Part shown: positions 28,946 through 46,599 of the stretch, piece by piece
Numbering within the stretch: position 1 is the first letter of the stretch
Layout: the number at the start of each line of letters is the position of its first letter
Virus record (IMG/VR): IMGVR_UViG_3300048928_000639
Span: 4,045 to 68,044 of that record
Strand: one strand, 5' to 3'
From: a virus
Length of the DNA: 64,000 nucleotides
The notes under the pieces: model-generated
The model's database searches: none
Told to the model about the DNA's origin: nothing
What the model saw: the letters and a program-made list of their open reading frames with translations, nothing else
Position numbers and translations under genes: made by a program

Positions 28946-28980
28946 GGGCGCTCCTGATTGCTGGAGCGACGGTGCCTTAA

Positions 28981-29003
28981 TTAATCTTGAGAGTCAAGAT
29001 AAA
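28981..29003 (-). promoter_or_regulatory. 23-bp dyad promoter/operator copy
   Basis: ttaatcttgagagtcaagataaa. Confidence 0.8.
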
Positions 29004-29012
29004 AGTGCAGGG

Positions 29013-29303
29013 CTAGTAGGGAGGCGGCGGTACCACCACGGCCCGCTCCGCCCTCAACCTATACACGTACTGCGCCGAACAGCCCACCAGCATCGCGACC
29101 GTCCCCGCATCATACGCCGCCAGTTCCTGCACGCGCCGGCGCACCTTACTGCTCCGGGTACGCGGCGCCCTGGAGCGGCCGGGGCGGTGCTGGCGCAGCG
29201 CGGCGTAGACCGTGGATAGGCTAGTGGCGAGGTGGGTCGCTATGGCGGCAGGCGTGTTGCCGGCGTCGTGTAGGGATAGGATTTGGGGCAGGTGGGGTGT
29301 CAC
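29013..29303 (-). CDS. Small double-HTH protein ending VPPPPY
   Basis: AAIATHLATSLSTVY and GTVAMLVGCSAQYVYR HTH-like segments. Confidence 0.65.
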   Translation of the reverse strand: MTPHLPQILSLHDAGNTPAAIATHLATSLSTVYAALRQHRPGRSRAPRTRSSKVRRRVQELAAYDAGTVAMLVGCSAQYVYRLRAERAVVVPPPPY

Positions 29304-29470
29304 TCCGCCACCGCCTTTCGCTTCACGGGGCGAACCAAGATGTTTTTGCTGTTCATCGAACGAGCGATCTTCATGGCTTCTGTCTTGGAGACACCAGTCA
29401 GCACAACATCGTCACCTTTCGGGGCGAGGGTGTTGTAAACTTCGTACTTCTGGGTGCTGCTGCGGGTCAT
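29300..29470 (-). CDS. Small hypothetical protein (56 aa)
   Basis: MTRSSTQKYEVYN...KAVAE, follows dyad promoter, GTGA-coupled to next ORF. Confidence 0.55.
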   Translation of the reverse strand: MTRSSTQKYEVYNTLAPKGDDVVLTGVSKTEAMKIARSMNSKNILVRPVKRKAVAE

Positions 29471-29515
29471 TTGCGTCGTCCGGTTCGGCGTTTCGATGTA
29501 CTCACCCTAATGACT

Positions 29516-29538
29516 GGAATCATGAGAGTCAACATTAA
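29516..29538 (-). promoter_or_regulatory. 23-bp dyad promoter/operator copy
   Basis: ggaatcatgagagtcaacattaa; TTGACT-17-TAGGGT. Confidence 0.75.
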
Positions 29539-29562
29539 TTCGCAACTGTCGTGCAAACTAAT

Positions 29563-31179
29563 TCACACCACCAGGCTCGGCATCGGCACCACCATACTAC
29601 GCCCGTCAACACCAACTTGTAACACTGAAGTCCGCGACAGCCCATTCGGGATCAAAATGCCCACCACCTCGCCGTCCACCACCCGCAGCCACTTCGCCTT
29701 GTCCGCGAACGGCAGCAGCGTCGCCGGCAAGCTGTGCCGCTCTGAGGCTGTGTCCACCTCGCCGGTGCTGTAGCCCTTGCGCACAGCCGCCCAGCCGCCC
29801 TCACGATCGACGTTCTTGGCGAAGCTGCTGATGAGGGCCGCACCAGATGGGGTTTCCAGCAGCGCCTGTGGCTTGCGTTCCGTATCGCCCCCACCGGTGC
29901 GCATGTCGTAATTACACGAGGGACAGTCCAGCACGCCCTTCTGCACCGGTTCGAGACAGGCGGGGCAGAGTTTGGTCATCGGTTCGTCGCAGGACCAGCA
30001 GCGCATGGCTGCGACGGGCACGCGGGCGGAGCAGTCGCACGAGACGAACGCGACCTTGGATTCCTTCGGGCGAATAAAATCAAGAGGACCAAATTCTTCA
30101 CAGTTCCCAGAAAAATCAAGTAGCAAGCCGTCTGCTTTACCGCGGCGAATCGATTCCTCAATGTTGCCGCCGACTGTGCGCAAAAGACGACCGACGATCT
30201 GTATCCACAAACTCAGCGACTTCGTTCGACGTCGACATACAAGCATGTCGATTTCCTGGACGTCGAACCCCGTGGTCAAGCATTCCACATTCACGATTGC
30301 GCGAATCCTGCCGCTGCGCAGCGCCTCGACGGTGTTGTAGCGATTCAGCGCGTCTGCTTTGGTGCGGTCACCGAGCACCAACCCGGTCGGAATACCCCAC
30401 TCGTTCATGCGCTTGTGCATGGCGATGGCTGCCTTACGACTTGCCTCGAACACGAGCCACGACCTGCGTTCACGACCATAGTGCAGCATCTGTGGTATGT
30501 GCTGGTCAATCGCCGCGATCATCTGTTTATCTTGCGATGCGCCTGTGTAGTCGCCCTGAACGACAGCCAGCTTCGATGCGTCCATGGTGTCGTCGAGCGT
30601 CGCGGAGTAGGGGGCTACCAAGTAGCCATCGCGAATGCCGTCGACAATACCGTAGCGGTAGACGATCCTGTCATAGGGTGCGCCTTCGCCGTCGACTATT
30701 GGCCCGCCTTGTGTTCGCCAGGGGGTGCCTGTGCCGCCGTTGATTCGGATATCGCCGAGTCCGCGACGTAATGTCTGCAGCATGCCAGAAGACCCGAACT
30801 GACTCAGATGCGCCTCATCCTCCTGGAGAAGCGTGATCGGACCAAATGAGTTTGCAAAGTTATAAACGCTCTGGATCGATGCTGAGATCATCGGGCCGCG
30901 CCACGTTCGCTCGCCAAGGGCTGCGGAGTTGATACCTACGGTGATGCCGAGTTCGGTCCCTGCCTTGGCAATTTGTCCAACGAGTTCACGAGTAGGAGCA
31001 ACAGTCAGAACGCGACCGCCGCGCTCAATCTCCCGTTTGCCGATCAGACCGTAGGTGTGCGACTTGCCAGAACCCACACACATATCCATGACAGTTCGTT
31101 TGATACCAGACTGCCATGCGGCCTCGACAGCGTCGGCGGCTTCGACTTGATGGGGGCGGTAGTTGAATTCTTTTATCAT
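29563..31179 (-). CDS. Superfamily II DEAH helicase with C-terminal zinc ribbons (RadD/YejH-like)
   Basis: GSGKS, DEAH, TGTP, LTTGFD, QIVGRLLR, CxxC clusters. Confidence 0.92.
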   Translation of the reverse strand: MIKEFNYRPHQVEAADAVEAAWQSGIKRTVMDMCVGSGKSHTYGLIGKREIERGGRVLTVAPTRELVGQIAKAGTELGITVGINSAALGERTWRGPMISASIQSVYNFANSFGPITLLQEDEAHLSQFGSSGMLQTLRRGLGDIRINGGTGTPWRTQGGPIVDGEGAPYDRIVYRYGIVDGIRDGYLVAPYSATLDDTMDASKLAVVQGDYTGASQDKQMIAAIDQHIPQMLHYGRERRSWLVFEASRKAAIAMHKRMNEWGIPTGLVLGDRTKADALNRYNTVEALRSGRIRAIVNVECLTTGFDVQEIDMLVCRRRTKSLSLWIQIVGRLLRTVGGNIEESIRRGKADGLLLDFSGNCEEFGPLDFIRPKESKVAFVSCDCSARVPVAAMRCWSCDEPMTKLCPACLEPVQKGVLDCPSCNYDMRTGGGDTERKPQALLETPSGAALISSFAKNVDREGGWAAVRKGYSTGEVDTASERHSLPATLLPFADKAKWLRVVDGEVVGILIPNGLSRTSVLQVGVDGRSMVVPMPSLVV

Positions 31180-32129
31180 GCGACACGCGAGTAGGTTTCG
31201 CCTGCCAACAGTCGGCGAATCTGCGACAGGTTTCGAGCGCCGACCTTCTCTGCAATAGCCGCCGCGTCATGCCCCATTGACGACAAGAACCGAGCGTCAC
31301 GAATTTGCTGTGGCTTCAGGCGGTCCTCGGCAGCGCACATGACGCGCTCGGCATAGCTGGCGTCTAGCCAATTCGCGGCAGCCATCGGGTTCGGTAGCCC
31401 TTTGCGGGTTACGCGCTCAAAGAAGCGATTGATGATCGCCTGCCTGTCGTCCGGTACAACCCGTTCATTCTTGCTGATTGCGCCGATGCTGCGGAGATAC
31501 GCAAGCCCCTTGTTTCCGCCTGGGACCATGTTCAACCCGAGTGGGTAGAGCGAATCGCTCGCGACGTAGGCTTCCTCCATGTCCAAGGCTGTCTGCTCCG
31601 TCAAACCACATGCGACGATCAGATGATGCGACATGATATTCGCGGCGCCATGGTACTGGCGAATGGCTCGGTGAAAGCGATAATGTGACCCTGAATCGGC
31701 ACCGCGCAGATGCTCGCCCCATCGTGTCCGCCATCCGCGTTTAGTGATGCCGGTATAGATCGCACCTTCGATGGGCGTGGCATCGCCGATCGTGACGAAC
31801 TGATGTTGGTAGAGTTGATAGCAGCCCGAGCGGTCTTGCGTACCCGTCAAAACCATCCACAGCGGTAACGCCGTCACTTCCACGAAGTCAGCCTGCTTGA
31901 CGAAAATGCTAAGCGTAATTTGATCGGACGGTCTCACCTCGGGAGAGGGGATAAACGTTGCGCAGAACTCCTGCGTGTTATCGTCGATGCGGACCTGCAG
32001 GTTGCCAGTTGGCATTGGCTCGTCAGGGCGCAAATCCCAGTTGTTGAGAACGTGATCGATAAATCCGACGTAACCGCGCCCGAGGCCGGTAACATGGCGG
32101 AATAGGTCGCGGTCTACGCTTCGCATCAT
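31176..32129 (-). CDS. GIY-YIG-like nuclease domain protein
   Basis: YTGIT.R....RW.EH...FHRAIRQY...E...GLNM..GG. Confidence 0.6.
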   Translation of the reverse strand: MMRSVDRDLFRHVTGLGRGYVGFIDHVLNNWDLRPDEPMPTGNLQVRIDDNTQEFCATFIPSPEVRPSDQITLSIFVKQADFVEVTALPLWMVLTGTQDRSGCYQLYQHQFVTIGDATPIEGAIYTGITKRGWRTRWGEHLRGADSGSHYRFHRAIRQYHGAANIMSHHLIVACGLTEQTALDMEEAYVASDSLYPLGLNMVPGGNKGLAYLRSIGAISKNERVVPDDRQAIINRFFERVTRKGLPNPMAAANWLDASYAERVMCAAEDRLKPQQIRDARFLSSMGHDAAAIAEKVGARNLSQIRRLLAGETYSRVA

Positions 32130-32159
32130 CGCTCTCCTGCTGCCCGCACAATGGCGAAT

Positions 32160-32182
32160 GCAACCGTGAGAGTCAACATTAA
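32160..32182 (-). promoter_or_regulatory. 23-bp dyad promoter/operator copy
   Basis: gcaaccgtgagagtcaacattaa. Confidence 0.75.
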
Positions 32183-32317
32183 TTAGTAAGGAGGCGGTGG
32201 CACCTCAGCAGCCAACAACTCCACCAATATCTCCAACTGCTCCGCGGTCAGCAGATAGTGCGGGGGATCGCCGAGCACCGTGGCGCCGGCCTCGATTGCG
32301 GCTTGGTCAATGGTCAC
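32183..32317 (-). CDS. Small protein ending VPPPPY (start uncertain, up to 32383)
   Basis: ORF track; GTG at 32317 overlaps end of upstream ORF. Confidence 0.5.
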   Translation of the reverse strand: MTIDQAAIEAGATVLGDPPHYLLTAEQLEILVELLAAEVPPPPY

Positions 32318-32459
32318 GGTGACAATCCGCGACCGCCGCAGCGGTCCAGCCCCAGTGCGGCTTGGCGCAACCTGCGACGTCACTGGTACGAACCGCGGGG
32401 TCGTCGCAGGAGCAGAGCAGGAGGGCGGCGAGGGTGAGTAACGTGGCCAGTTTGATCAC
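32307..32459 (-). CDS. Small putative lipoprotein (50 aa)
   Basis: MIKLATLLTLAALLLCS-CDD: signal peptide with lipobox-like Cys. Confidence 0.5.
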   Translation of the reverse strand: MIKLATLLTLAALLLCSCDDPAVRTSDVAGCAKPHWGWTAAAVADCHRDH

Positions 32460-32779
32460 GCCGCAATCCTTTCCTGTACTGAGACATTAACCAACATCGC
32501 CGCGGTTGGCTTCACCCGCCCCAACGCAACGGCAGCCTCTTTGCGCCGCACCTCGGATCGCATAGCGAAGTCGATATGCAACTTGAACCGCTGCATCTTC
32601 TGCCCGAACCCCTTGGGCATCGGTCCGACCCAACTGGACTTCGGCAGCCACTGGTCGCCGTTGACCGCGACAGGGCGCCAGCGAAACGTCTTGGTCACGC
32701 GACCCGCCTTGACGCGGACGATCACATGCCATTCGTGTGCATCCAGGATGATACTTGGGGAGCGGTAGAGGGTTGTCAT
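32456..32779 (-). CDS. Hypothetical protein
   Basis: MTTLYRSP start coupled to upstream ORF. Confidence 0.55.
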   Translation of the reverse strand: MTTLYRSPSIILDAHEWHVIVRVKAGRVTKTFRWRPVAVNGDQWLPKSSWVGPMPKGFGQKMQRFKLHIDFAMRSEVRRKEAAVALGRVKPTAAMLVNVSVQERIAA

Positions 32780-33173
32780 GACTTCGGCTCCGCGCGTACC
32801 GCAAAAGCTCGGACTGAACCGAACACCACCGCGGTAGGTGGCGTCATGGTTGAATGGCATCGACGCGGGTCGCACCAAGTTTGCGTGCCAATGTAGTCGA
32901 TAAACTCTCGATGCTTTTGCGGGACTGGTGCGCCTTCGGGAAGAATACTCCAAGGCAATCCAGCGTTCGGCCCAAAACGATCAGGCTTCGGCGGGTCGAT
33001 GCGAACCCCCGCGTCAGTGAAACCGTAACGCTTCGTGGCACTCACTTGCCCAACTCCCGTGCCACTTGATCCGCTTCCGCCCACGCGACACCGGCACCGA
33101 GCAGCAGGGTCAACAGATATTGATAGGTGCGAGGCATCGTGGGCTCCCGTTTAGTTGCTGCTACCGTATCGAA

Positions 33174-33196
33174 TTAATCATGAGAGTCAAGATAAA
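33174..33196 (-). promoter_or_regulatory. 23-bp dyad promoter/operator copy
   Basis: ttaatcatgagagtcaagataaa; TTGACT-16-TACGGT. Confidence 0.8.
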
Positions 33197-33350
33197 TAAT
33201 CAGGAGCGAGAGCCGAAACGTACCCCTCGACCTCATCGGGCACCAACTCCACCTCGCGCGGGCAGACCTGCTCGTCATCGGCGTCCCAGACGCGCCGGCA
33301 TGCGACGCAACGGATCTGATTGTCGCGGGTGGGGCGGGCTTGGCAGGTCA

Positions 33351-33791
33351 TCACCAGCCGACCTTGAGCGACATGACGCGCCCGTATGTGCCATCGTTGT
33401 GCAGCATCGACGCTTTGATCGCGTCTTTCGGATGAGCACCTACGAACATAGCGCCGAGCGCGACTTCGCGACCAGATCCGATCGCATGATACGGTGCCTT
33501 AACCACGTAATCGCGGGTGTGCCCCTTGTGGCTTTCATACAGTGTCACCTTGCGCCTGCTGGTGATCACCATGGCACAACTGAACGCTGTCTCTGGCGGA
33601 ATATGCGGCTGTTCACCTCCGTTTTTGAACCACTCCAAGAACGCCACGATCCACCACGCAGCGCCCGCGGCACCAGCGACCGCACCGTCCTCGCGTTTGG
33701 CAATCTTCTCGATTTGGGCGTCACGCAGACCGTTGTCAGTCAGGCCAGTGTCGGCTGCGATGATGCCCGAACGATAGGCGATCGTGGTCAT
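33351..33791 (-). CDS. Proteasome-beta/HslV-like Ntn peptidase
   Basis: M-TTI N-terminal Thr nucleophile, AADT, EKI, AIGSG...ALGAM. Confidence 0.75.
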   Translation of the reverse strand: MTTIAYRSGIIAADTGLTDNGLRDAQIEKIAKREDGAVAGAAGAAWWIVAFLEWFKNGGEQPHIPPETAFSCAMVITSRRKVTLYESHKGHTRDYVVKAPYHAIGSGREVALGAMFVGAHPKDAIKASMLHNDGTYGRVMSLKVGW

Positions 33792-34318
33792 GCTGCATGC
33801 GCCTTTGCCAAAACCGCCAATGCAGCATTCGCAGCCCGCGTCTGCGCGAGCGCGTCGTTCAGCGCTACATGCGGTGGTGGGACTGCATATTCCTTCGGGT
33901 TGATGCCGGCGAGGTCATACAGCGTCCTTGTGTCGCGCAGGTTCCAGAACTTCCATGGGGGTTCGCGGCCGGTCGCATCGTAGAGCGCGGTCAGCATCGG
34001 GCCGTCAAACGACGCGCCGTGCGCCCAGATCAGCGGATCCGCGCCGCCGCTGGCCCAATTGATCCAACTGGAGAGGTAGTCGAGCGCGGTGCCGACGGGC
34101 AGGGGATTAGACGTCGCGGCGGCCCATGCGGCGCGATCCTGTTGTGCCCACCACGCTTCGGTCTTGGGGGCGATCGTCAACCCGAGCGCCTGCTGCTCCG
34201 AAATGTTGAGGTTGATGGAGCAATGCGCCTCGTCACTGAAGCGGACCAGTGCAACGGACATCACGACGCCGCCGGGGCGGGTCGATAGCGTTTCGCTGTC
34301 GAGCATCAGGTGGGTCAT
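33788..34318 (-). CDS. DEDDh 3'-5' exonuclease (Rv2179c-like)
   Basis: HLMLDSETL, GASFD, RDTRT, H.ALNDA..Q. Confidence 0.85.
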   Translation of the reverse strand: MTHLMLDSETLSTRPGGVVMSVALVRFSDEAHCSINLNISEQQALGLTIAPKTEAWWAQQDRAAWAAATSNPLPVGTALDYLSSWINWASGGADPLIWAHGASFDGPMLTALYDATGREPPWKFWNLRDTRTLYDLAGINPKEYAVPPPHVALNDALAQTRAANAALAVLAKAHAA

Positions 34319-34592
34319 TTGGTATCCTCTGGCACTGCGCCGAATTGATTGAGCACGCGCGCCATGTGCTCGCCGGTTGTCGGCTCACTGGTGAAGCCGT
34401 CTTGCAGACTAGCCAAGATGAATTTGCCCGGCGCGCTGCTCATGCGCCCGATCAAGTTGCGCTCGCCATGACGTGTTGGCATGATCGCGATACAACCGGG
34501 CCGAATGTCGGCAGCTGTCCAGTTATAGGTCATCTCAAACACTCCTCTATGCGTCGCAGAACGGCGCGCGGGTCAGTCATGGGTCGGTGGTG

Positions 34593-35024
34593 CTAGTTGT
34601 CGAACCAGAACACGATCCGATATTCGGACAGATCACCTTCGTCGTCCTCGACATCGAACCAATACGAGGCCGGATACTTGGCCTGATAGCTCTCGATGTC
34701 GAGTGGCGCTTCTTGCGCATATCGAACCGTGTTGTAGAGCTTCGCGGCCTCGTCGAGCGCCATCCACGAATGCGAATGTCCGTCACCGTTCCAATCCGCG
34801 ACGTGATACTTGGTCAGCGCACTACAGTCGTCGGGCAGCCCTTTGGGCGACGGTCCCGGACCACGGACGCCAGCCATTGCCGCGAAGCGGAGATAGTGAC
34901 GTTCGGTTACGGCGGGGTAGCTGCGAGTGTCTTTGTAGCCGGACTGATGCCCGCGGAAGCTGTTGAGACCGAGCCAACCGTCGGCGGTCTTGCGCTCCAA
35001 TACCATGTGAATATCGCAACTCAT
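34593..35024 (-). CDS. Conserved-looking phage hypothetical protein
   Basis: MSCDIH...R.Y..FA..AGVR...GLP.D...HSHSW...RIVFWFDN. Confidence 0.75.
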   Translation of the reverse strand: MSCDIHMVLERKTADGWLGLNSFRGHQSGYKDTRSYPAVTERHYLRFAAMAGVRGPGPSPKGLPDDCSALTKYHVADWNGDGHSHSWMALDEAAKLYNTVRYAQEAPLDIESYQAKYPASYWFDVEDDEGDLSEYRIVFWFDN

Positions 35025-35059
35025 GTCGCTCTCCTTTGATCTGTCGCCACCGTATCGAA

Positions 35060-35082
35060 CTAATCGTGAGAGTCAACAATAA
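35060..35082 (-). promoter_or_regulatory. 23-bp dyad promoter/operator copy
   Basis: ctaatcgtgagagtcaacaataa; TTGACT-16-TACGGT. Confidence 0.8.
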
Positions 35083-35291
35083 TCAGCGCGAAGGTAGCTT
35101 TGGTCGCGAATAGTGCCAACCCGTCGCTTTTGACCCTGCCTTCTCCAACCACCGCGCGTGGTCTTTCGCCCACACATCGGCACCGGTGACGTCGTTCCAT
35201 TCGATTCGACTGATCGCTTTGGCTGCCGCCGCTGTTGCCATGATAGCGTACAGGTTCTTGATTGCCTCATCGACGGCTTTGCTGCGTGTGG

Positions 35292-35681
35292 TCATACTGT
35301 CTCCTCGCACTTTGCCCCTGAGGTAGAACCCGCCATCCACGCATCCAGCGTCTCGAACACCTCGACCGTTGGCCAGTGGTGAAAGACGTTCTCCCGATAT
35401 CCGATGACAATCAGGCGCTTGCCACGGGCGAGACCGTAACCGAACTCGACATGCCGCCCGCCACCTGTGCTCGGTGTGCCACGCGGGAACGTGAACGACA
35501 CCACAGTGTCTGCGGCATCCACATCATCAAGATCGAGCACCGCGATCTGTTCGCGCGTCAGACCTTCCTCGCCGCCGAACACCCATCGCGCCGTAATGTC
35601 GTGGCCCGCTGCGATTAGCCGTTTAGCCACAGCCTCCATCTTCTCGCGGTCGCCGAACGGTGCGGCCAGATAGATTTTCAT
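35292..35681 (-). CDS. Nucleoside 2'-deoxyribosyltransferase family protein
   Basis: KIYLAAPF...DLDDVDAAD...G.HVEFGY.LA.GK. Confidence 0.8.
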   Translation of the reverse strand: MKIYLAAPFGDREKMEAVAKRLIAAGHDITARWVFGGEEGLTREQIAVLDLDDVDAADTVVSFTFPRGTPSTGGGRHVEFGYGLARGKRLIVIGYRENVFHHWPTVEVFETLDAWMAGSTSGAKCEETV

Positions 35682-38600
35682 ATCGCATCGCCTTCGCTGT
35701 TGATGGTTGTGCCATAGAGGCGGTTGGGAACGTCGAACAGCCGCGCCCAAAGGGCGGGCTCGTCGAGGGTGGGTGCGGGGCGTATCAACCTGTCCCACTC
35801 GGACCAGTTGAAGTCGTTGGGAATGATGACCTTGCCACTTTGCATCCTACCAACTCCAAATCGCAATTGCGGTTGCTACGATCAGCACCGCTCCAATTGT
35901 CGCGAGGCGCAGCGCATGCCACGTCTGCAGATCACGGGTCAGACGCATTGCAGCCCTGCCGCGGTCAAACACACCTGCTGACCATGCCCCCACCGCATCA
36001 GCCCCTGATCGACCAACTCCTGCAGCGCATCGCGCCAGATGGTCGCGGTCTCGCCGGCATCGGTGTAGGCGCGCAGTTGCGTGTCCATGAAGTGCCACTG
36101 CCACCTGGTCACGCTGCCGGCCGGGCTGTGGAGGCGGAGGAAACGCAGTTGTTCGACGGTGGGCGCCCAAAGGGCCAACGGCGACGCTGCGACCGCTGGC
36201 GTCTCACAGTTGCATTCGGGACGATGCTCGTGGCAAACGCAGGCGCGGACTTTGTGGAACGTCATGTGACAGATCATCGGCGAACCGCGCCGTCGTAGCT
36301 AACGCAGCGATGATCGTTGCTGGTCATCCCCGACGCGACCCAGTTGGTCGCTTTCAGTTCTGCATAGACGCGTTCGCATTCGGACTGCGAACCAATCCCC
36401 GACACGGTGCCGTAGCTGTGCCCCGCTAGAAAGATGAGTAGCCAAACGGTCGTCATCAGTATTTCTCCCCCACCAGTATCAATCCGATCTGCGTGTCGGT
36501 CAGGACCGCTTCGTGCGGCCATCGTTGCCCCAAATAGTCGTGACAGGCTCGTGTAGTGCAGCAACTGTACGCCCACGACCTGCGCTGCATGTAGCGATGG
36601 CGCAGCTTTTGCGACGGTGTGAACGCGTCGAAATTGGCTTGGGCGCGCTTGACCAGTGCGTCGAGGTCAAGGCGCGGCGGGCATGGTTTGCTGCGGAGAG
36701 TCATGTCAGTATCAACCCAATTGCAGCCACATCGACCACGACGCACATAAGCAGCAACACCGCAGCGGCAGGGGCGTAATCAAACCCGTCGTTCGCCTTG
36801 CAGAACCGCACGAACAGGTACGTCACGTTCCTGACCCCGCCACAAAACACAACACCCGGTCATTCAGCACGCACAGATGCGACCGACCATCCGGACTGTC
36901 GCGCTCCTGCTCGACCTTCTCGGCGGGGATGACAAACCACTTGCCGTCCGACTCGCGCTGCGCGTGCCAAGTGCCGGTGGGATCCTGCGTCGCTTTCAGT
37001 GCAGGGGCGCAGTCATCCATGTTGCAACAACTAATCCAAGGCGCATCGGGCATCTTCCAGGTGGCGTAGAACTCGCCGGCGACGTCGAGCGCGGCGTGAT
37101 CGTGCGCCGATACGCGCGCCCCTGTGGCGAACAGCGCGAGGCAGATGAGAACGGCGACACCGCGAAGGTTCAGCATGATGCAAAGCTCCGAAGGAATGGG
37201 TCTGTGCTGCAATCGTAGTTGATTAGGAACAGGTGGGATGGATCGATCGGCTTCGGTTCGACGCGGCGACCCATCTTGACGCGCACGATCGGCTTGAACT
37301 GACTTCGGTAGCCTTGAATGACCCAGTGCGACATCTCGACTATGACCCGGTCACCACTTGTGCGGAGAACGACACCTTCGTCCCCGAGACGCACCACACC
37401 CTCGACTTCTCGCACACAGCGCACGCGCGTCCCTGCGGGCCATTCGATCCGTTGGGCTGCTGTGGTCATATCGTCCACCCAGCGCCCATTGCGAGTGCGC
37501 GCCAGTAGAGATGTCCTTCAGAAGTGTCGCACCAATAGAATAGGTCGGCGAGGGTTTCTCCTGCGTTGCCGATGGGCGCAGCGCGTTGCAGTGTGAGAAG
37601 TGGGCCAATTCCACCCTCATCATACGTAGCCTCCGCAATCCGCTGGCAGTGGAGCGGGAAGGCCGCTGCGATCTGTTCGAACCGGGTTGTCATCGGCGGG
37701 TCTCCAGCGCTACGGCGATACGCACGAGCGCCGCTTCGATGCGGTTGAATCGCTCAAAGCCCGGTATGGTGATAAAGATCAGGAACAGCCACAGACAGGG
37801 CCAGAAATAGCCGGGGTGCTCTTTCACAGCGACACCAGCCCATTCGCCGCGCGCAGGGTCGCACCAGACTGCGCCCCATCCCACCCAAGGTCTCCGCCAG
37901 CCTCGATCTGCCGCAGCCGACGCGCGACGGCCCGCTTGCCGTTCAGTCCGGCCTGCGCGTACTGGATAGATTTGGTCTCGCGCTTCGCAGCACGGGCCTG
38001 CTTCTTGCGCACCAACGCAGCGGCAGCTTCCAACTGGCGCAGGAGGAAGTCGGGGATCATCGGACCCCATTCGAGCTTGATAATGCTGAGCACGTCGCCG
38101 CCGAGGTCGTACATTTGATGGTCCCCTATTCCTACTGACACTCACCGTATCTAATTAATCTTGAGAGTCAAGATAAATCGGCACGAAAAGACGCAGCCGC
38201 TGCATTCCCGGCCAGGTTGCCAATCAGACACAGGTAGACCGGGATTCCTTCAACCGTGATCCAATCCTCGCCATCAGGCCCCTCGGCGCAGCCCACGTCG
38301 CTCTCCAGGCAATCGCACTCACGCGCCACCTCACGCGCCACCCATGCCCACGGGGCACTGGCGTCGCCGGGGACGAAGCGGGCCTTTGCCCATGGGCGCC
38401 CGTCGAGATGCGTGATGTGGACTGGCGTGAGCGTCGGGTGGGGCAGTACGTTGTTGCGGGCTGCCACGCGGGTCACGGCGGCGCGCTGCATGCGAGAGAT
38501 ATCGATCAGGTTGTCTATCGCGTCGTAGGTCATGACAAAGCCTCCACCAGTTTGCGCAGCATGATGCCCGTGCCACGGTGGCCCATCTCGTCGTATTCGT

Positions 38601-38969
38601 TCGCCACGCTCTCGATCGCCTTCAGCAATTCATAGCGCGACACCGGTGCATCAAGGCGTGCTGCCGCTTCCCTTGCGGCCCGTTCGCGGTCCCGCTGGTC
38701 CTCGCGTTGCGCTTGCGCCGTTTGTTCAATGGCGCCGAACATTTGCTTGGTGGTGCGGTGGGTCATGACTGCGGATACTCACCCTCGACATAGGCGCGAG
38801 CTTCATCGGTCAGGCGACCGGCCTTAAGCATCAGGCGAGCGAGCAACACGTCCGCTTTATTCTTCTTTGCAGCGTTCAAACCTGCTCGCACCTGTTCCAT
38901 GGTGCGCAGCGGGAGACCAAGTCGTTCTGCATCGGCTTGCAGCATAGAGGCGATGGTGGGGTGGGTCAT
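35678..38969 (-). other. Cluster of about 14 small, mostly translationally coupled hypothetical early genes (e.g. 35939-36277, 36274-36456, 36456-36704, 36823-37176, 37170-37469, 37466-37693, 37824-38114, 38168-38533, 38530-38766, 38763-38969)
   Basis: Chained ATGA/GTGA overlaps on the minus strand downstream of dyad promoters; several with signal peptides. Confidence 0.6.
38155..38177 (-). promoter_or_regulatory. 23-bp dyad promoter/operator copy
   Basis: ttaatcttgagagtcaagataaa; TTGACT-16-TACGGT. Confidence 0.8.
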
Positions 38970-39003
38970 TGTTCGCTCCTGTTGGTGCAATGACCATAGC
39001 AAT

Positions 39004-39026
39004 CGAATCGTGAGAGTCAACATTAA
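39004..39026 (-). promoter_or_regulatory. 23-bp dyad promoter/operator copy
   Basis: cgaatcgtgagagtcaacattaa; TTGACT-16-TATGGT. Confidence 0.8.
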
Positions 39027-39082
39027 TTTGTGACCGAGGCTGCAGGTGCTGCGATTTGGTGTTGAGTGGTGCGGGATTACCT

Positions 39083-39360
39083 TGGACCAGTGGACCAGCG
39101 CCGTGGTCCGTTCATGTTCCATTTTGCCATTGTTTTTGTTGTGTTATTTCTATTTTAGACTCTGGACCAAGGAATATTGAAAAGACTACTGCCAGAATTG
39201 GGAAATCCCATTCAACACGTAATAGCAAATACACGTACTAACGCGCACTCGCAGAGACCCCCGAAAAGCACCCCGGCTGTCCTATTGCAAAACCCGTGTT
39301 CCACTGGTCCAAGAGTCTAAATCGAAAATACGTCAATGATTTCAACGGAAAAATGGACCA
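39083..39360. repeat. AT-rich non-coding region with TGGACCA repeats and a long imperfect inverted repeat; putative replication origin
   Basis: TGGACCA/TGGTCC(A) at 39083, 39091, 39104, 39163, 39305, 39354; arms about 39115-39169 and 39305-39360. Confidence 0.55.
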
Positions 39361-39466
39361 GCCCATTTCGCGCATTTGATGTAGTTGTATCGTCTGCAAC
39401 TTACAGTAACCTGCGATTACGTGTTGAGCACTTGACCGCACCATTCCGGCTCAACATCTATTCGCA

Positions 39467-39751
39467 ATGACCAGTACAGCACAGACGATCTCTCAACTCG
39501 AAATCGCAGGCTTCACGCACCTCCAGCGCTCGTGCGAAGCGCCAGGATGCCCGCCGCTCATGTCGGAAATATCGTTCGCTAGGATGCGGGAGATGCGCGC
39601 TGACGCCGGTGACATGACGCTCGAACAGGTGCGGGCCAAGATGCCGTGTAAGCGATGTGGCGCGCGGATGATGTGGTTGTCACCGGTGGACCTGCGGGAA
39701 CAGGAGGCGCGGTTGAAGGCGCACTCGTACCCGGATTGGAGTCGTCGTTAG
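39467..39751 (+). CDS. Small counter-oriented Zn-binding protein
   Basis: CEAPGC and CKRCG; plus-strand ORF within the minus-strand arm. Confidence 0.6.
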   Translation: MTSTAQTISQLEIAGFTHLQRSCEAPGCPPLMSEISFARMREMRADAGDMTLEQVRAKMPCKRCGARMMWLSPVDLREQEARLKAHSYPDWSRR

Positions 39752-41358
39752 GTGCGAGGCATGAACCGAGCGATGCGCTCGCCGACCCACCTGAATTTGG
39801 GCACAGCCCACGAGTTGCCGAGCACCTTGTAGCGCGGACCATCTGGACACTGGTCAGCGCCCTTGCCGCGCCACGGGATCGCTGTGTAGTCGGGCGACCA
39901 CCAACGACCAGCATGATCCAGCCACGCGCCAGGGTAGGTGGAGTCGCACTGCCACTGGAAACCCTGCAGGCGCTCGCACTCACGCGGGGTGAGCCGACGG
40001 ACGGCACTGGTCAGGACATGCGGCTTGTCACCGCCGCCACTGCTGGCGCGCAGTGCCGTAGCGACATCGCCGCCGAGTTCGGCTGTCGCGCCACCCTCCC
40101 GACCACGCAGGGCAACTGGGTAGGCGATGGCGGGCATGACACCGGCGTTCGCATGGCTGCCGCTGTGACCGCCTGCGCGTAGCGTTGGCGAAAGCTCATA
40201 GGTGGCGTCGGCGCCGTAGTCCTTGGCGCTGAAACAGATGATCGGCGTGCCTCGACCGGTCCCGTCCTCGCTCGCGTCCGCACCTTCGGCTTTGAGCGCA
40301 TGACTGATCGGACCAGTGACGCTGACCGCCATCAACATTCCGCACTCGGCGTCTTGCTGTGTGGCGCTACCTGCGGCTTTGCCGTTCGCCTGGAGCGTTC
40401 CTGTGATCTGCGGCACATAGGTCTGTAGGGTATGGTCGCAGCTGTCGTTTGGCTTGCCGAGCAGCGAGCGCGACAACGCAGGCACCAGTCCGCCGTTCAG
40501 GTCGAAGTCGGTCCCAAGTCCGCCACTGCCTTCAGGGCGCGAGCTAAGGGTTCCGGTAACGCCTTGCCCCGCTTCTCGGCTCGGCGGAGAATTCCGGCGC
40601 ACGCCTTCCGGCTCAAAAAGTACTGCGGCGGGATCGGCCCCGTTTCCAAAATCTGCGATAACGATGACACGCTCGCGTCGTTGTGCCAGGCCAAAAAATT
40701 GTGCGTCCTTGACAGCCCAGGCGGCGCGTCCTTTGGGTCCAGTGACCACCCCGTACCGTGGCCATTTGATGTAGTGGGCGCGCTCCTTGGCGCTCCATCC
40801 CCATGCTCGATTGAACTTGCCGACGACAGGCCGCGGAGTGGCAGGAAGGAAGGGACCGTCTGCTCCGACAAGTCCCGCCAAAAAACATCCGAAGGCGTTG
40901 TCTTTGGTGCTGAGAACGCCGGGGACGTTCTCCCATACGACGTTGCGGAGACCATTGCCTTCAGCGAGTTCATGCGCCAGTCCTACGAATGCGAGGGTGA
41001 GATTGCCGCGGGCGTCGTCCAGCGAGTTGCGCGCACCGGCGATGGAGAAGGCTTGGCATGGCGTACCGCCGCACAGGATGTCCACGCGACCGAGCCACTT
41101 GGTTTTGACCTTGGTGAAGTCGCCATGATTCGGGACGCCGGGGTAATGGTGTGCCAGCGTGGCGCTCGGAAACTTCTCAATCTCGGCGACACCAACGCAC
41201 TTCCAGCCGAGCGGCGTCCAGGCAACGCTCGCCGCCTCGATGCCCGAGCACACTGAAAAGAACGTCAACTCGTCGGGTTGGAGCGCAAGCGCGGCCGCTG
41301 CGAACGACGGACCGGCATAGATGACGTTGCCGTCGCGGCGCAGGGTGAAGTGGGTCAT
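39748..41358 (-). CDS. DNA cytosine-5 methyltransferase with expanded variable region
   Basis: SVCSGIEA, GGTPCQ, WENVPG, QRRERV, RRLTPRECERLQGF, LGNS. Confidence 0.93.
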   Translation of the reverse strand: MTHFTLRRDGNVIYAGPSFAAAALALQPDELTFFSVCSGIEAASVAWTPLGWKCVGVAEIEKFPSATLAHHYPGVPNHGDFTKVKTKWLGRVDILCGGTPCQAFSIAGARNSLDDARGNLTLAFVGLAHELAEGNGLRNVVWENVPGVLSTKDNAFGCFLAGLVGADGPFLPATPRPVVGKFNRAWGWSAKERAHYIKWPRYGVVTGPKGRAAWAVKDAQFFGLAQRRERVIVIADFGNGADPAAVLFEPEGVRRNSPPSREAGQGVTGTLSSRPEGSGGLGTDFDLNGGLVPALSRSLLGKPNDSCDHTLQTYVPQITGTLQANGKAAGSATQQDAECGMLMAVSVTGPISHALKAEGADASEDGTGRGTPIICFSAKDYGADATYELSPTLRAGGHSGSHANAGVMPAIAYPVALRGREGGATAELGGDVATALRASSGGGDKPHVLTSAVRRLTPRECERLQGFQWQCDSTYPGAWLDHAGRWWSPDYTAIPWRGKGADQCPDGPRYKVLGNSWAVPKFRWVGERIARFMPRT

Positions 41359-41376
41359 CCGCTCACACTGCAAGAA

Positions 41377-41399
41377 TTAATCGTGAGAGTCAACATAAA
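41377..41399 (-). promoter_or_regulatory. 23-bp dyad promoter/operator copy
   Basis: ttaatcgtgagagtcaacataaa. Confidence 0.8.
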
Positions 41400-41402
41400 A
41401 GG

Positions 41403-43571
41403 TCAGTAAGGAGGCGGGCTGGGCGGCAATACCACGCCCGGTGACGTTGGCAGCGGCACCGCGTTCCCGCCACGGATGATGACGCGCGGCCGGTTGTCGG
41501 CGGTCTTGCTGACCAGGTAGCGCACGACGTGCTCAATGTGCTTTGGCAGTATCTCGGGGCCGCGGTACCAACCACGCGTCCGCGTGCCACCGATGTACGG
41601 CTGGACTCGACGAAACCCCATCTTCTTGAGGATCGCGTCGCGGGCACCGTGGACATTGCGCCAGTTTGAATAGTCGCAAAGGTCGACGATATCGTCGACC
41701 GACACGAACGCCTGCTTAGTGTGCTCGGTCTCGCCGAACCATGACCATAGCCGGCTTTCCATATCGCTGACCGAGCGGGCAGCCTCCTGGTGCGTCGCAG
41801 CGATCGCCCACACTTCACGCGGGATGTCAAAACTTTCCCCGCGCGTATGGCGCGCTGCCGCCTCACCGACCAACTGAAACACGGCGCTGCGCAGGCCGGG
41901 CAGGTCTACCTCCTGGTCGATTCTGATAGGTAAAAATCGGCGATTGCCGGATGGATCCTCCAGCGGCGTGTCGTCGTTGGTCGAGCCGCAGAAGATGTTT
42001 CGCCGCGGTCGCTCGGTCACGGCGCGGGCATAGGCCGTGCGTCCGGCGTCGGTGGTGCGGGAAATCATCGCCTTGACATGGTTCACATTGGTATTGCCGC
42101 GCATGCCCATTTCGCTGATCTCAACCAGCATCTTGCCGGCCAGCGACAGGACCAGTTCCTTGGACGCATCACCGAGCAGGATTGAGTCAGTAAAGTATTC
42201 CGGTCGCAACGCCAGCACCGCGAGCATTGTCGACTTACCGGTGCCTTGCGGACCGAAGAAAATTGGCATCGTGTCGAACTTCACGCCAGGCGAACGAACC
42301 CGCGAGACCATGCCGCCGACCAGGCTACGCCCGACCGCGCTGTGGTACTGGTCGTTGGGGCAGGAACAATACCGGGATAGCCAAGAGTCGAGCCTTGCAG
42401 TCCCGTCCCAGTCCTTCTCCAGCGTCGCCAGCAGTTCGACGGCGGGATCGACCGGGTTGGCGTGGGCAATCGCCAACAACGTCTCCCACAGGAACTCCTT
42501 GCCGGGCCGAAAGCGCGTCTTGGTCCGGTTGGCGCGGGTGCGGAGCTTGGCCACGACAGTGTCGTCAATGTAGGTCCAGTCCGTCCAGCGCAGGTCGAGG
42601 TCGATGCCGCCCTGGATTTCCATGCGTTCCAGCCATGCGTTCCAGCGCAGCGACAGTCCGAGGATGCCGAGCAGGACGGTCACGTTGTCGCTGTTGTCCG
42701 ACTGCGGTTCCTGATTCTTGTCGTACTCCCACTTGTCGTGCGTAACGGTGATGCGCTCGACCTTTTCCTGCAGGTTCGCCGCGGCCAGCTTGATCTTACT
42801 GGTCGGCAGCGGATGCCCGGACAGGGTGATACGCCGGCACACGGCATCGAACACGTCGGCGTGCAGCAGGTTCAGCACGGCGAGCACGTCCACCACGGCG
42901 GCCGGCTTGAACTTCTGCGGCGGCTCGGACAGCGCGATCACGCGCGAGATGCATTCCAGCATGTCGGCGTACAGGCCGTGCCCGGACATGGCGGCGGGCA
43001 GCGTGGGGAATTCATCGGCGGCGGGCCGCGCCGGCGCGTTGGTCGGTGCTGCGAGGAAGTCGCGGAGGACAGGCGCGGCGAGACGCGTCAGTTCCTCCTG
43101 CCCGGCGAGCATCGGCATGCCGCCTTGCAGCGTAGCACCAGCAGCAGCCGCGATCGCCGCAACGCCTTTGAACATATCGACGCCAACTTTTCGCAGCGAC
43201 CCTTTCCAGCCAAGGTCGTGAGCGCGTTTGAACAGCGTCCCCATCGTCTGGGAATTTTCGGTCGCCTCACTGGCGAAGGTATCCCATTTAGAAAGGGCGG
43301 TGTCATCTACGGTCTGATCATGACAGATGACCGCCCACAGATCCAAGCCGTTGTCGCCGAACTCGACTTTCGCGATCATGCCAGCCGATACCCAGTCCAT
43401 ATAGCTGGGGAAGCCGTCATTATCGAACAGCCATTGATATAACGCCTTGGCTTCGTCGATATCGTAGACGCCGACCTTACCAGCCACTGCAGCGCTACGC
43501 GTGGTTGAGCGAATACAATGCGCAACGAGCGCCGCCGGTGCCGGATAACTGTGTGTCGTCACGTCAACCAT
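41403..43571 (-). CDS. PriCT-2 + VapE/VirE-like helicase; ends PPSPPPY
   Basis: Y.DWV.AGM...KW.TF...GTLF..A...GW; PG.KFD, GPQGTGKST, EISEM, R.AY.R, GNRRFLP. Confidence 0.88.
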   Translation of the reverse strand: MVDVTTHSYPAPAALVAHCIRSTTRSAAVAGKVGVYDIDEAKALYQWLFDNDGFPSYMDWVSAGMIAKVEFGDNGLDLWAVICHDQTVDDTALSKWDTFASEATENSQTMGTLFKRAHDLGWKGSLRKVGVDMFKGVAAIAAAAGATLQGGMPMLAGQEELTRLAAPVLRDFLAAPTNAPARPAADEFPTLPAAMSGHGLYADMLECISRVIALSEPPQKFKPAAVVDVLAVLNLLHADVFDAVCRRITLSGHPLPTSKIKLAAANLQEKVERITVTHDKWEYDKNQEPQSDNSDNVTVLLGILGLSLRWNAWLERMEIQGGIDLDLRWTDWTYIDDTVVAKLRTRANRTKTRFRPGKEFLWETLLAIAHANPVDPAVELLATLEKDWDGTARLDSWLSRYCSCPNDQYHSAVGRSLVGGMVSRVRSPGVKFDTMPIFFGPQGTGKSTMLAVLALRPEYFTDSILLGDASKELVLSLAGKMLVEISEMGMRGNTNVNHVKAMISRTTDAGRTAYARAVTERPRRNIFCGSTNDDTPLEDPSGNRRFLPIRIDQEVDLPGLRSAVFQLVGEAAARHTRGESFDIPREVWAIAATHQEAARSVSDMESRLWSWFGETEHTKQAFVSVDDIVDLCDYSNWRNVHGARDAILKKMGFRRVQPYIGGTRTRGWYRGPEILPKHIEHVVRYLVSKTADNRPRVIIRGGNAVPLPTSPGVVLPPSPPPY

Positions 43572-44029
43572 GCGTAGGCATTTCCTTCAACATGGGACGG
43601 AGGAATCAGAACGAAGCCATTGCCTGCGCGGATGTCGATGATGCCGGGCACCAGCGGCGGCTGCTTCAACAGCGCGGCGTCTGTGTCCGTGGGAACGTCA
43701 AAGTACAGATGCCAGCCGGTGGATGGTGTTTGCACATGGGGCGCATAGATCGGCTGCCCGGCGGCGGTGCACCAGTCGCTCCAAGCCTTCCAGCCAGCTT
43801 CGCGGCCGACTTTCTTGACGTCAATATCCACTACTATTTTATTGCTTGGTCCGGCGACCATAATCCAGTTGCAGCCGGGAAACTGCGCGGCCCACTCCGC
43901 CCACCGCTTGGGGTCGCGTGACCAATCGTGCGCGAAACTGGCGATCAGGCCAACAGGCGATTTTCCGCCGGCGGGAATCGGACAGAGGGCGGCACCCATG
44001 TCGGCATAACGGGCAAGCGGCTCAAACAT
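43559..44029 (-). CDS. Bifunctional DNA primase/polymerase (Prim-Pol) domain
   Basis: VVDIDVK, TPSTGWHLYF, IDIRAGNGFVLIPPS. Confidence 0.88.
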   Translation of the reverse strand: MFEPLARYADMGAALCPIPAGGKSPVGLIASFAHDWSRDPKRWAEWAAQFPGCNWIMVAGPSNKIVVDIDVKKVGREAGWKAWSDWCTAAGQPIYAPHVQTPSTGWHLYFDVPTDTDAALLKQPPLVPGIIDIRAGNGFVLIPPSHVEGNAYAWLT

Positions 44030-45602
44030 GGGCCAACCGAGCCTGGAGCGCCTGCGCGGCGGGGAGCAGGGCGGCGGCGGTCCGGAAGGCTGACAGGTTT
44101 AACCGAACGGGACCGAACCGAGCGCGGATGTCAGCGACGTATTCCGCCTCGCGCTCGCACAGCACAACACAGAAGCCGCGGTTGGTCGCTGCGACGGCAG
44201 TGGTGCCAGATCCGCCAAAGGGGTCCAGGATCGTCCCGCCGGGCGGCGTGATGAGCGTGCACAGCCACTCCATGAGGCTGATCTTCTTGACGGTCGGGTG
44301 CTTGCTGCCGTTGCGGTCTGCCTTGGAGGCTTTTGCGCTGTAGAAGAATCGGGCGGCGGAGCCGGAGTCGTTGCGGGCGGCGTGTGACAACGGCGCGGCC
44401 ATGTCGCCGTAGCACGTTTTGCTCGGGCGGGAGCGACCAGTCGCGTTTAGGTCACCCTGCTGTCCTTTGCTATCAGGAAACGCCCCGACCACTTCATCCG
44501 AGCCGTCATGCACCACGTTGGCGGGCCAGCGGCCTTGCACTGTCACTTCCGCACCAGGCATTCCAACGCGATCCTCTGCAACGCGGATCATGCTTGCGTT
44601 CGTGGTCGTTCCTTTGGGAGCGTACGTGCGTTCGTCTGTTCCTACTCTGCTCGCATCAATATTCAGCGCGCCGGTGCGCCAGCGCAGCACATTGGCTGCG
44701 ACCGTGCCTTCCGACAGCGGCTTGCGCGCCAGAACGATCGGCTCGAATGCGGGCTTGAGCGCAGTGCCCCATCCTTCCCATTCCGCTGCTTCGGGGGTGG
44801 CGGGTGCGGTGATGTCCACAACACGGCGAGCCGAAGCGTCGTAATCATCAGCATGCGCCGTAACCGCGAGACGAACTTCGGAGGTGTCGCGCATTTCCTT
44901 GCTGCCGACGACTTCGCGCTCAGCGGCCTCGAATGACTCGTCGAATTTGTCGCCAATTTTGAGTGCTGCTTTGATGCGCGGCCATTCATCTCGCGTGGGC
45001 ATACGACCGGTTTCGAACCACATGAAGCCACCGCCGCCAAGTGACTCGGTTGCGCCAATCAACCCGACTCGACGAGCGGCTTCGGTTTGTGAAATGGCTA
45101 ATTTGGTGCGCGCTGCTTTGATTGCGGCACCAAGCAATTCAAGCGATTTCCAGTCTTTACGCTTATCAATCGCCTTGCTGACATCGAGCGACTTGGGAAA
45201 ACCCGTCCCATAAAGCCACATCAAGGAGTCACGGATTTCGAACCCGGCGTCCTCGATCGCGCAGGCCATGCGGTGATAGCCGCGCGACGAGCCGAAAGCG
45301 ACGACGTGGCCGCCGGGTTTCAAGACGCGCAGCACTTCCGCCCACAACGCAGGCTGGAAAGCGATGTCGCCGCCATCCCACGCTTTGCCCATGAAGCCCG
45401 TCGAGATACGCGAGCGGCCCGCCGGCGAATTGAGGTTGAGCGATGCCGCGCCGGTGCCGCCTTTCTTGTCCGTGGTTAAATGGTACGGCGGATCGGTGAC
45501 CACACTGTCCACGGAATTGTCGGGCATGGCGCGGAGGGCGTCGCGGCAATCGGCGTGAAAAAGGGTCGCCGTGGGGGACAGGGTGATACGCATGCTGATC
45601 AA
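44022..45602 (-). CDS. N6-A/N4-C DNA methyltransferase with inserted XRE-type HTH
   Basis: VTDPPY, HPTVK, ILDPFGGSGTT; insertion IKAARTKLAISQTEAARRVG...FETGRMP. Confidence 0.9.
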   Translation of the reverse strand: MISMRITLSPTATLFHADCRDALRAMPDNSVDSVVTDPPYHLTTDKKGGTGAASLNLNSPAGRSRISTGFMGKAWDGGDIAFQPALWAEVLRVLKPGGHVVAFGSSRGYHRMACAIEDAGFEIRDSLMWLYGTGFPKSLDVSKAIDKRKDWKSLELLGAAIKAARTKLAISQTEAARRVGLIGATESLGGGGFMWFETGRMPTRDEWPRIKAALKIGDKFDESFEAAEREVVGSKEMRDTSEVRLAVTAHADDYDASARRVVDITAPATPEAAEWEGWGTALKPAFEPIVLARKPLSEGTVAANVLRWRTGALNIDASRVGTDERTYAPKGTTTNASMIRVAEDRVGMPGAEVTVQGRWPANVVHDGSDEVVGAFPDSKGQQGDLNATGRSRPSKTCYGDMAAPLSHAARNDSGSAARFFYSAKASKADRNGSKHPTVKKISLMEWLCTLITPPGGTILDPFGGSGTTAVAATNRGFCVVLCEREAEYVADIRARFGPVRLNLSAFRTAAALLPAAQALQARLAHV

Positions 45603-45814
45603 TACGGCGGCGGTGCGATACGAGGTGCCAACACCCTCGCCACAGCCTCATCCGGTCCCGCACACACCGGACCATCCCGCCACGATCCGCGCGCTTCCTC
45701 GACGCTGGCGATCCAGCCGCCCTCCGCCTTGGTGACGACAAGGCCGACCGCACCGGCCGCCTCCATGAGGGCCGCAAGGGACGGTGGCGACGGTGGGGGT
45801 GCGAGGTGCTGCAT
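45599..45814 (-). CDS. Small protein ending IAPPPY
   Basis: First ORF after the perfect dyad promoter; coupled to MTase start. Confidence 0.55.
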   Translation of the reverse strand: MQHLAPPPSPPSLAALMEAAGAVGLVVTKAEGGWIASVEEARGSWRDGPVCAGPDEAVARVLAPRIAPPPY

Positions 45815-45834
45815 GGCGGCCAATATAGGCCGCA

Positions 45835-45857
45835 TTAATCTTGAGAGTCAAGATTAA
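45835..45857 (-). promoter_or_regulatory. Perfect copy of the dyad TTAATCTTGA-GAG-TCAAGATTAA
   Basis: 10-bp perfect arms around a 3-bp spacer. Confidence 0.85.
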
Positions 45858-45949
45858 AAACAAAGGGCGGCACTGCGCTGGTGCGGCCGCACTGGGTAAT
45901 TACTAGGTCTAGTGGCGCAAAGGCTGCGCAACCTACAAGTGGGCCGGAA

Positions 45950-46375: not shown

Positions 46376-46423
46376 CTTGGCCTCCAATACTATATGGGTT
46401 CTGCTGTGGTACCTAGATGGCTA

Positions 46424-46446
46424 AAAACCTTGACTGTCAACATAAA
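46424..46446. promoter_or_regulatory. Variant dyad copy (CTG spacer) upstream of arm-domain gene
   Basis: aaaaccttgactgtcaacataaa. Confidence 0.55.
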
Positions 46447-46554: not shown

Positions 46555-46599
46555 GACCCTCGTTGCAACAAGCCCGGACGGGCAGATGAGGGACTACAC

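Follow-up and report, generated by a model that had tools for sequence, protein, structure and literature searches.

A 64,000-nt stretch of viral DNA (bases 4045–68044 of the 68,044-b IMG/VR provirus record IMGVR_UViG_3300048928_000639; hereafter the window, meaning this whole stretch) encodes four proteins that end in three prolines and a tyrosine directly before the stop codon (PPPY-stop). Across the sequences compared here, a portable, proline-rich C-terminal motif appears to exist in several dialects, of which PPPY is one; in other lineages discrete tails take its place, namely PPPPC, CPVPLP(K), and, in one small-protein family, an ending of acidic character, [GSD][VI]F[DG]. The best explanation, judged somewhat likelier to be right than wrong, is that PPPY is a portable C-terminal short linear motif that would serve as a docking peptide for one common receptor.

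The four ends, all on the minus strand and all confirmed in the DNA as a first, sequence-only reading of the window had them, belong to the following proteins. A helix-turn-helix (HTH) DNA-binding protein of 96 aa (29013–29303; Pfam HTH_23, E 5e-6) ends VVVPPPPY-TAG (tag and stop, 29013–29030); a small protein of 44–66 aa without a Pfam match, here termed family A (32183–32383), ends EVPPPPY-TAA (32183–32200); a VapE-type primase-helicase of 722 aa (PriCT_2 + VapE; 41403–43571; Pfam VapE-like_dom, E 1e-56) ends LPPSPPPY-TGA (41403–41417); and a second small protein without a Pfam match, family B (45599–45835; 55–78 aa depending on the start), ends RIAPPPY-TGA (45599–45613). For family A, a start at 32317 agrees with the 44-aa gene call P0274; for family B, the database gene call P0121 is 55 aa and a start at 45814 is possible too. 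That the four proteins are unrelated, as initially proposed, holds by fold and family (HTH_23, VapE/PriCT_2, and two proteins without a Pfam match) but is qualified by one weak alignment, computed among four sequences with no composition correction, in which the family A open reading frame (ORF) matches the HTH protein in its C-terminal half (34% over 67 aa, E 1e-4). Runs of three or four prolines occur in all four tails, and a single acidic residue is present among their last eight positions, the E of AAEVPPPPY.

The PPPY-stop ends are genuine and far more frequent than chance would give. Over the six frames of the whole record, PPY occurs 14 times and PPPY four times, with a stop directly after all four PPPY, compared to 300 mononucleotide shuffles that averaged 0.04 PPPY-stop (maximum, 1) and 2.1 PPPY in any context. 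An unbiased, per-record listing of common C-terminal tetrapeptides returned PPPY as recurrent in G000, G001, G002, G003, L102, and L110 (G and L denoting the records and loci of this analysis); the other recurrent tetrapeptides were only non-coding-frame translations of a promoter-like repeat (DSHD, DFPH) and scattered coincidences of two or three copies. Across G000–G003, PPPY was followed by a stop in 4/4, 4/4, 2/2, and 3/3 occurrences (13/13), compared to 0/2 in each of G004 and G005, and the PPPY dialect is strictly C-terminal.

Because orthologues keep the tail with different codons and the tail recurs on several proteins per genome, it is selected as a peptide, in agreement with what the sequence-only reading had proposed. 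Among 24 PPY-stop tails from six records, the proline codons (CCG, 44; CCA, 16; CCT, 12; CCC, 5) were used in approximately background proportions, tyrosine was encoded by TAT 14 times and TAC 10 times (p = 0.12 compared to background), and the stops were TGA (n = 16), TAG (n = 6), and TAA (n = 2), with TGA mildly over-used (p = 0.02). The variation in codons originally described for the window is real among the relatives but only partly right within the window, where a 13-nt string, CCGCCTCCYTACT, is common to three tails and the fourth alone differs (CCGCCGCCGTATTGA). Tail-coding DNA does get copied from one gene to another, and in an adjacent gene pair of L102, 37 of the 38 final nt are identical. 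Opposite three of the window tails the plus strand reads (A/G)GGAGG; this candidate antisense Shine-Dalgarno sequence was rejected on inspection of the sequences, as no start codon occurs at a usable distance.

Relatives of the window were retrieved with an alignment of VapE homologues and comprised 80 IMG/VR loci, two genome loci, and 80 metagenome loci. Loci L009, L024, L022, and L010 are equivalent to records G001, G002, G003, and G004, respectively, of which G001 and G002 were both rated 100% complete. Tails of the form P-P-x-Y or P-x-P-Y were absent from 77 of the 82 IMG/VR and genome loci scanned and occurred in L009 (n = 5), L010 (n = 1), L022 (n = 3), L024 (n = 5, one on the opposite strand), and L047 (one stray). 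In the metagenome loci (867 kb; 11,119 ORFs of ≥40 aa), five tailed ORFs were found in two loci, L102 (n = 2) and L110 (n = 3), with no such tails in the other 78. Taken over whole records, G002 has six PPY-stop tails and G003 has four, VapE counted, and five phage records besides the window carry two to six apiece, which bears out the idea of a C-terminal tag shared among proteins of one genome. Counted against the background of related loci, the tails cluster in few records and nearly all other loci are without them. Neither VapE nor the HTH protein, used singly to scan IMG/VR, returned close relatives, and alignment-based scans were required; the one with the family A alignment recovered G001, G002, and G004 only. 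The scan of GTDB genomes yielded just two distant loci, and a megablast of positions 29000–46000 against GenBank phages yielded a single 147-nt match. Homologues with a named source derive from Bradyrhizobium and Rhodoplanes.

Orthologues of three of the four window proteins keep the tail, and proteins of one kind, such as VapE and C5 methyltransferase, can carry either the PPPY or the CPVPLP dialect. The 71 family A proteins listed from an alignment search (the window's own gene call included) consist of 26 with P(x)PY, 3 with PY plus 1–4 residues, 5 with PPPPC, 27 with CPVxL near the end, and 10 with other ends. The PPPPY of the window protein corresponds to PPPPPY in G001, PAPPY in G002, PPLPY followed by SLP in G004, and CPVPLPK(ELS) in L023 and L103, with no such tail in L020. 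A profile search with family B recovered 181 relatives (E ≤ 1e-3), of which 150 were listed and the 144 of ≤160 aa were classified as P(x)PY (n = 37), PY with additional residues (n = 2), PPPPC (n = 5), CPVxL (n = 9), other proline-rich (n = 9), acidic-hydrophobic (n = 63), and other (n = 19). Family B ends in PPPY in the window, P0122, G001, G002, G003, and L102, in PPPPC in L013 and L021, and in CPVPLR/T in L018 and L019; in P0122, which is 81% identical to the window protein, the linker has diverged and PPPY is kept. The acidic-hydrophobic tails of this family follow the consensus [DE]x[GSD][VI]F[DG] (examples within P0155–P0271 are EDIFG, GVFD, SVFD, and EDLI). For VapE, the 120 proteins listed (the window's own included) divide into 20 with P(x)PY, 44 with other proline-rich ends such as LPPLPPR, and 56 with neither; the PPY end is present in G000–G003 and L110, and L023 carries CPVPLP. 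Among the HTH orthologues, G001 keeps LPPPPY and G002, G004, and G005 have no tail. Pooled over 83 PY tails, the consensus is [L/V/I]-P-P-[P/L]-P-Y, with PPLPY accounting for 20 of the 83.

Further tailed proteins occur in the relatives. These include, in L102, a Dam-like methyltransferase (its Pfam match weak, at 23.7 bits, and below the cut-off), a C5 methyltransferase that ends IPPPPY in L022 and has an orthologue in L104 with CPVPLPG, a terminase-small-subunit-like protein in G002, and several proteins without a family. In L022, two overlapping frames each have their own PPPPY-stop, 20 nt apart, and other loci conserve each of the two at the protein level. In complete genomes of the CPVPLP type, two or three proteins apiece have the motif close to their end, and in this dialect it can stand up to ~11 residues before the end.

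An AlphaFold2 model of the 55-aa family B protein (mean predicted local distance difference test score, 91.6) has three strands and a helix, followed by a tail without regular secondary structure. A fold search of this model against the PDB returned no match at E ≤ 0.001, and scores for the model in the ESM Atlas were all below 0.9. No Pfam family was assigned to family B on scanning 70 members, two of which had weak matches to BFN_dom and two to DUF3156. In the window, the family B ORF is directly upstream of an N6/N4 methyltransferase, the Prim-Pol ORF, and VapE, and its stop at 45599 overlaps the start region of the methyltransferase, the next gene.

Several side observations concern the same genes. 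The Prim-Pol domain is encoded by a separate 156-aa ORF (43559–44029) that overlaps the VapE ORF (41403–43571) by 13 nt in another frame; Prim-Pol/VapE homologues are mostly fused (~880 aa), and unfused forms of ~720 aa exist (P0003, P0004, and P0026). Two copies of the motif often stand in a single tail or protein of the CPVPLP lineages, as in LPACPVALPACPVPLR (L018, 6600–6848; L019, 6135–6404; L023, 9189–9458). The C5 methyltransferase gene downstream of VapE contains a second open frame on the same strand, ~280–460 codons in length and ending WLMGFPPEW in several loci (L022, 7891–9303; L013, 4495–5730; L020, 1881–2870; L009, 4018–5199; L023, 11827–13080; L104, 3708–4820; L011, 8607–9521). 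This second frame is conserved as protein (40% over 403 aa between L022 and L013) and the middle of the methyltransferase frame is not; it may be a long overlapping gene, or the methyltransferase may be frameshifted or split. For the window's own C5 methyltransferase, pairwise comparison did not bear out an alternative frame conserved as protein.

Three of the window tails are followed by a promoter-like repeat. Its core, TTGACTCTCA, stands on the minus strand at 28988–28997 after the stop at 29013, with further copies at 32167–32176 (after the stop at 32183) and 41384–41393 (after the stop at 41403), and has 15 exact copies in the window compared to 2.6 expected for matches with ≤1 mismatch. 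The full repeat of ~40 nt reads ttaatg-TTGACTCTCA-cgATTAATTcgaTACGGTg, with TTAAT/ATTAA flanks, and its copies span 15590–61232 (e.g., 46527–46536). Gene orientation changes from the minus strand left of ~46.4 kb to the plus strand rightward, and the copies, which precede groups of genes, switch strand at the same point, being on the minus strand to the left of 46 kb and on the plus strand beyond 46.5 kb. G001 has a related repeat, gTTGACTCTCCGTAT. As a generic sigma-70 scan of 28000–46600 scored only two of the copies there, the repeat is described here as a putative promoter. The proximity of three stops to a promoter copy, given earlier as within 10 bp, holds when measured from the TT(A/T)AT flank (0–8 nt); the distances to the TTGACT hexamer are 15, 6, and 9 nt. 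Most tags in the relatives are not followed by the repeat.

The PPPY tails have the general properties of short linear motifs, in that they are short and non-globular, the peptide is conserved while its flanks diverge, and it recurs on unrelated proteins. In shape, the tail would likely be a polyproline-II stretch that ends in a tyrosine cap bearing the free carboxylate. Added to otherwise different phage proteins, such a motif would allow one common receptor to bind all of them, and docking would gather proteins of DNA transactions on a single hub, probably one of the replication or DNA machinery. Clients of this kind would be the primase-helicase, DNA methyltransferases, HTH proteins, the terminase-small-subunit-like protein, and the two small-protein families, which may be adaptors or competitors at the hub. 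Docking is suggested by analogy with the tails of T7-type single-stranded DNA-binding proteins (SSBs) and the clamp-binding peptide of phage Mu.

In the early region, no phage protein family tracked tail type by presence or similarity, and the similarity of VapE and of SSB cuts across dialects. Among ~50 window proteins scanned, none matched a WW or SH3 Pfam family. Among eight near-complete records, the only real families common to the three PPPY genomes and missing from the remaining five are those of the tail-fibre region (window 2445–4070 and 4888–5322), an exclusivity that would be in keeping with a common host and, by extension, with a receptor of the host. On balance, the receptor is somewhat more likely to be host- than phage-encoded. 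A 102-aa ORF at 37170–37478 (faint Cul7/CPH match, E 0.17) was rejected as a general receptor, being present only in G001 and L023. More tentatively, and with the odds leaning against it, host bacteria could possess a hitherto undescribed receptor for proline-rich C-terminal peptides, a counterpart of WW/SH3 on a DNA or replication hub, to which phages would address sets of proteins by a host-specific postcode (PPPY-COOH; elsewhere PPPPC and CPVPLP) that is copied from gene to gene and coevolves with the host.

A number of points weigh against the docking explanation. The PY tail is missing in 100 of 120 listed VapE proteins, 107 of 144 classified family B proteins, 45 of 71 listed family A proteins, and three of four HTH orthologues, and with most homologues lacking it, the tag is dispensable for core functions. 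On a 126-tip tree, the VapE tail state requires at least 12 changes, compared to 19–23 in five of 200 label shuffles; the VapE tail is labile, and the tree gives no cause. The integrase, taken as a marker of a shared host, does not track dialect; it is encoded by the PPPY records G001 and L110 and by G008 of the CPVPLP type, and G002 lacks it. Within the window, part of the tail identity reflects recent DNA copying and not independent convergence, because three tails have 13 nt in common. The searches above found no receptor, docking being suggested by the pattern of the tails, and the argument for a host receptor is a weak one, resting as it does on three tagged and five untagged genomes. Finally, a C-terminal degron, the main rival, would also be a docking peptide and is by sequence inseparable from this reading.

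The degron explanation, considered unlikely, holds that the early proteins share a brief lifetime because their tail is recognised by a phage protease or by an AAA+ protease or adaptor of the host. Early regulators, methyltransferases, and replication helicases are often kept short-lived, and the tail is found, strictly at the C-terminus, on early regulators, methyltransferases, and the replication helicase. The window also encodes a 146-aa HslV-family (N-terminal nucleophile, Ntn) peptidase (33351–33791; start MTTI; phrog_1040, E 4e-27), which the sequence-only reading had put forward as a possible partner of the tag. That partnership is not supported by comparison with the relatives; the HslV-like peptidase has no match in G001–G005, although G001 and G002 are rated complete and carry five to six tags, and its only occurrences among relatives are in L018 and L019, both with a different type of tail. 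The CPVPLP motif, set back from the end by as much as ~11 residues, is unlike a terminal degron, and the well-known bacterial C-terminal degrons are non-polar (e.g., ...LAA), not polyproline. Loading of the virion, whereby a structural protein would bind the tagged proteins and the particle would carry them for injection with the DNA, is improbable. C-terminal targeting peptides for capsid-like shells exist, and the tail-fibre module (2445–4070 and 4888–5322) contains the only families exclusive to the three complete PPPY genomes; but this exclusivity, in a comparison of only three genomes to five, is equally explained by a common host range, and no structural protein is tailed except the terminase-small-subunit-like protein in G002.

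Two further explanations would place the signal outside the finished protein, and both are given very little credence. A cis-acting translation device, in which a polyproline stall dependent on elongation factor P (EF-P) at the gene end would time or couple downstream expression, would draw on the three or four consecutive prolines in all four window tails, the promoter-like repeat after three of them, and the mild over-use of TGA (16/24, p = 0.02). The pausing role suggested earlier for PPP is contradicted by tails at the same position in orthologues that have no run of three prolines, namely PPLPY (20 of the 83 pooled PY tails), PAPPY, and CPVPLP. The downstream context also varies, consisting of a promoter repeat, an overlapping start, or neither, and the two overlapping L022 frames with PPPPY-stops 20 nt apart are difficult to reconcile with such a device. 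A nucleic-acid signal, with the peptide a by-product, would be either a DNA cassette that recombines or an mRNA CCUCC resembling an anti-Shine-Dalgarno sequence; this explanation is the least probable of all and is largely refuted by the codon data. CCTCC is contained in the CCGCCTCCYTACT string of three window tails, and two L102 tails are identical at 37 of 38 nt, but the 24 tails follow background codon usage, CCTCC is not conserved, and in G000–G003 PPPY occurs in no frame except directly before a stop. Of the cassette of PPPY and promoter once suggested for the window, the copying of tail DNA between genes stands; the coupling to the promoter does not, as the distance to the repeat is variable, the repeat is missing after most relatives' tags, and the codons differ.

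A second proline-rich tail is found on the plus strand, where the window encodes a gp2.5-like single-stranded DNA-binding protein (51689–52525; phrog_7011, E 6e-11; Pfam Enc34_ssDNA-bd) with a long Pro/Ala-rich, non-acidic tail, LPPGLPAFPQPAQ. The nine homologues found (G001, G002, G005, L014, L018, L021, L023, L102, and L105) all have tails of the LPxFP/LPPLP type (9/9). The SSB tail, ending LPAFPQPAQ, and the PPSPPPY of the primase-helicase are both proline-rich but differ in motif, and the SSB tail appears to be a second, lineage-wide tail type in the same replication module and not the PPPY tag. The Enc34 paper describes acidic tails as characteristic of all prokaryotic and phage SSBs. The rightward operon of the window further contains ThyX thymidylate synthase (50914–51645) and a family A DNA polymerase (53533–55584; the polymerase family, not the small proteins), and ORF comparisons found no match to this polymerase in G001, G002, or G005. 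A phage-encoded OmpR-type response regulator (Response_reg + Trans_reg_C) is located at 56609–57604; OmpR-type regulators are a feature of alphaproteobacterial phages.

Full-text literature searches turned up no phage for which such tails have been described. The principle of common terminal docking tails is known; the motif, its client range, and its concerted, lineage-specific variants are new as far as these searches reach. Should the receptor be found, it would represent a new bacterial peptide-recognition module with a readable code for the phage proteins sent to it, and would give a role to families A and B, two widespread groups of tiny phage proteins.

Among known systems, the T7 gp4 primase-helicase carries an acidic tail similar to that of gp2.5, such that two distinct replication proteins have in common a short, aromatic-ended tail that docks on one partner. 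Here too a gp2.5-like SSB and a primase-helicase have conserved tails; unlike in T7, the tails are proline-rich and uncharged and are also present on methyltransferases, HTH proteins, and tiny proteins. There is no run of Asp/Glu in the window tails, and the SSB tail is Pro/Ala-rich. The T4 proteins gp43, gp33, and gp55 have tails that bind the sliding clamp, likewise short terminal peptides that tether unrelated proteins (polymerase and transcription factors) to one DNA-bound hub. For T7, PMC5686142 implicates the gp2.5 SSB tail in contacts with the polymerase and the primase-helicase, and for phage Mu, a preprint (bioRxiv 10.1101/2025.01.04.631326) describes an N-terminal clamp-binding motif in MuC and Mor. 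Unlike the clamp motif QL[SD]LF, the consensus of the 83 PY tails has no Q or L-x-L-F, and nothing here links PPPY to the clamp; the acidic-hydrophobic tail of family B (63/144) may, on our reading, resemble the [SD]-L-F end of the clamp motif or the peptides of SSB tips.

The core of a group I WW ligand is P-P-x-Y, which is present in all four PPPY tails of the window, and PPLPY in the relatives is likewise similar to the PPxY/PPLP ligands of eukaryotic WW domains, a parallel offered by the sequence-only reading that is best regarded as an analogy. LPPLPPR on many VapE homologues and PVPLPK are similar to SH3 class II ligands (PxxPx+); viral late domains are included among these WW and SH3 ligand classes. 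These tails differ from WW and SH3 ligands in their bacterial setting and in the strictly terminal position of the PPPY dialect, which is not required of those ligands. EF-P-dependent polyproline stalling shares the PPP/PPPP of the window tails but not its conservation, as this is lost in orthologous tails. The bacterial SSB C-terminal tip, DDDIPF, is an interaction hub and, like PPPY, presents a terminal Pro-aromatic-COOH peptide, there read by a pocket; in that system one tail serves many partners, whereas here many proteins share one tail, and acidic residues are absent from the PPPY dialect. Shared terminal docking peptides wire the replisomes of T7 and T4 as well as the clamp and SSB hubs of bacteria, and the tail described here is, for its part, short enough for direct peptide testing.

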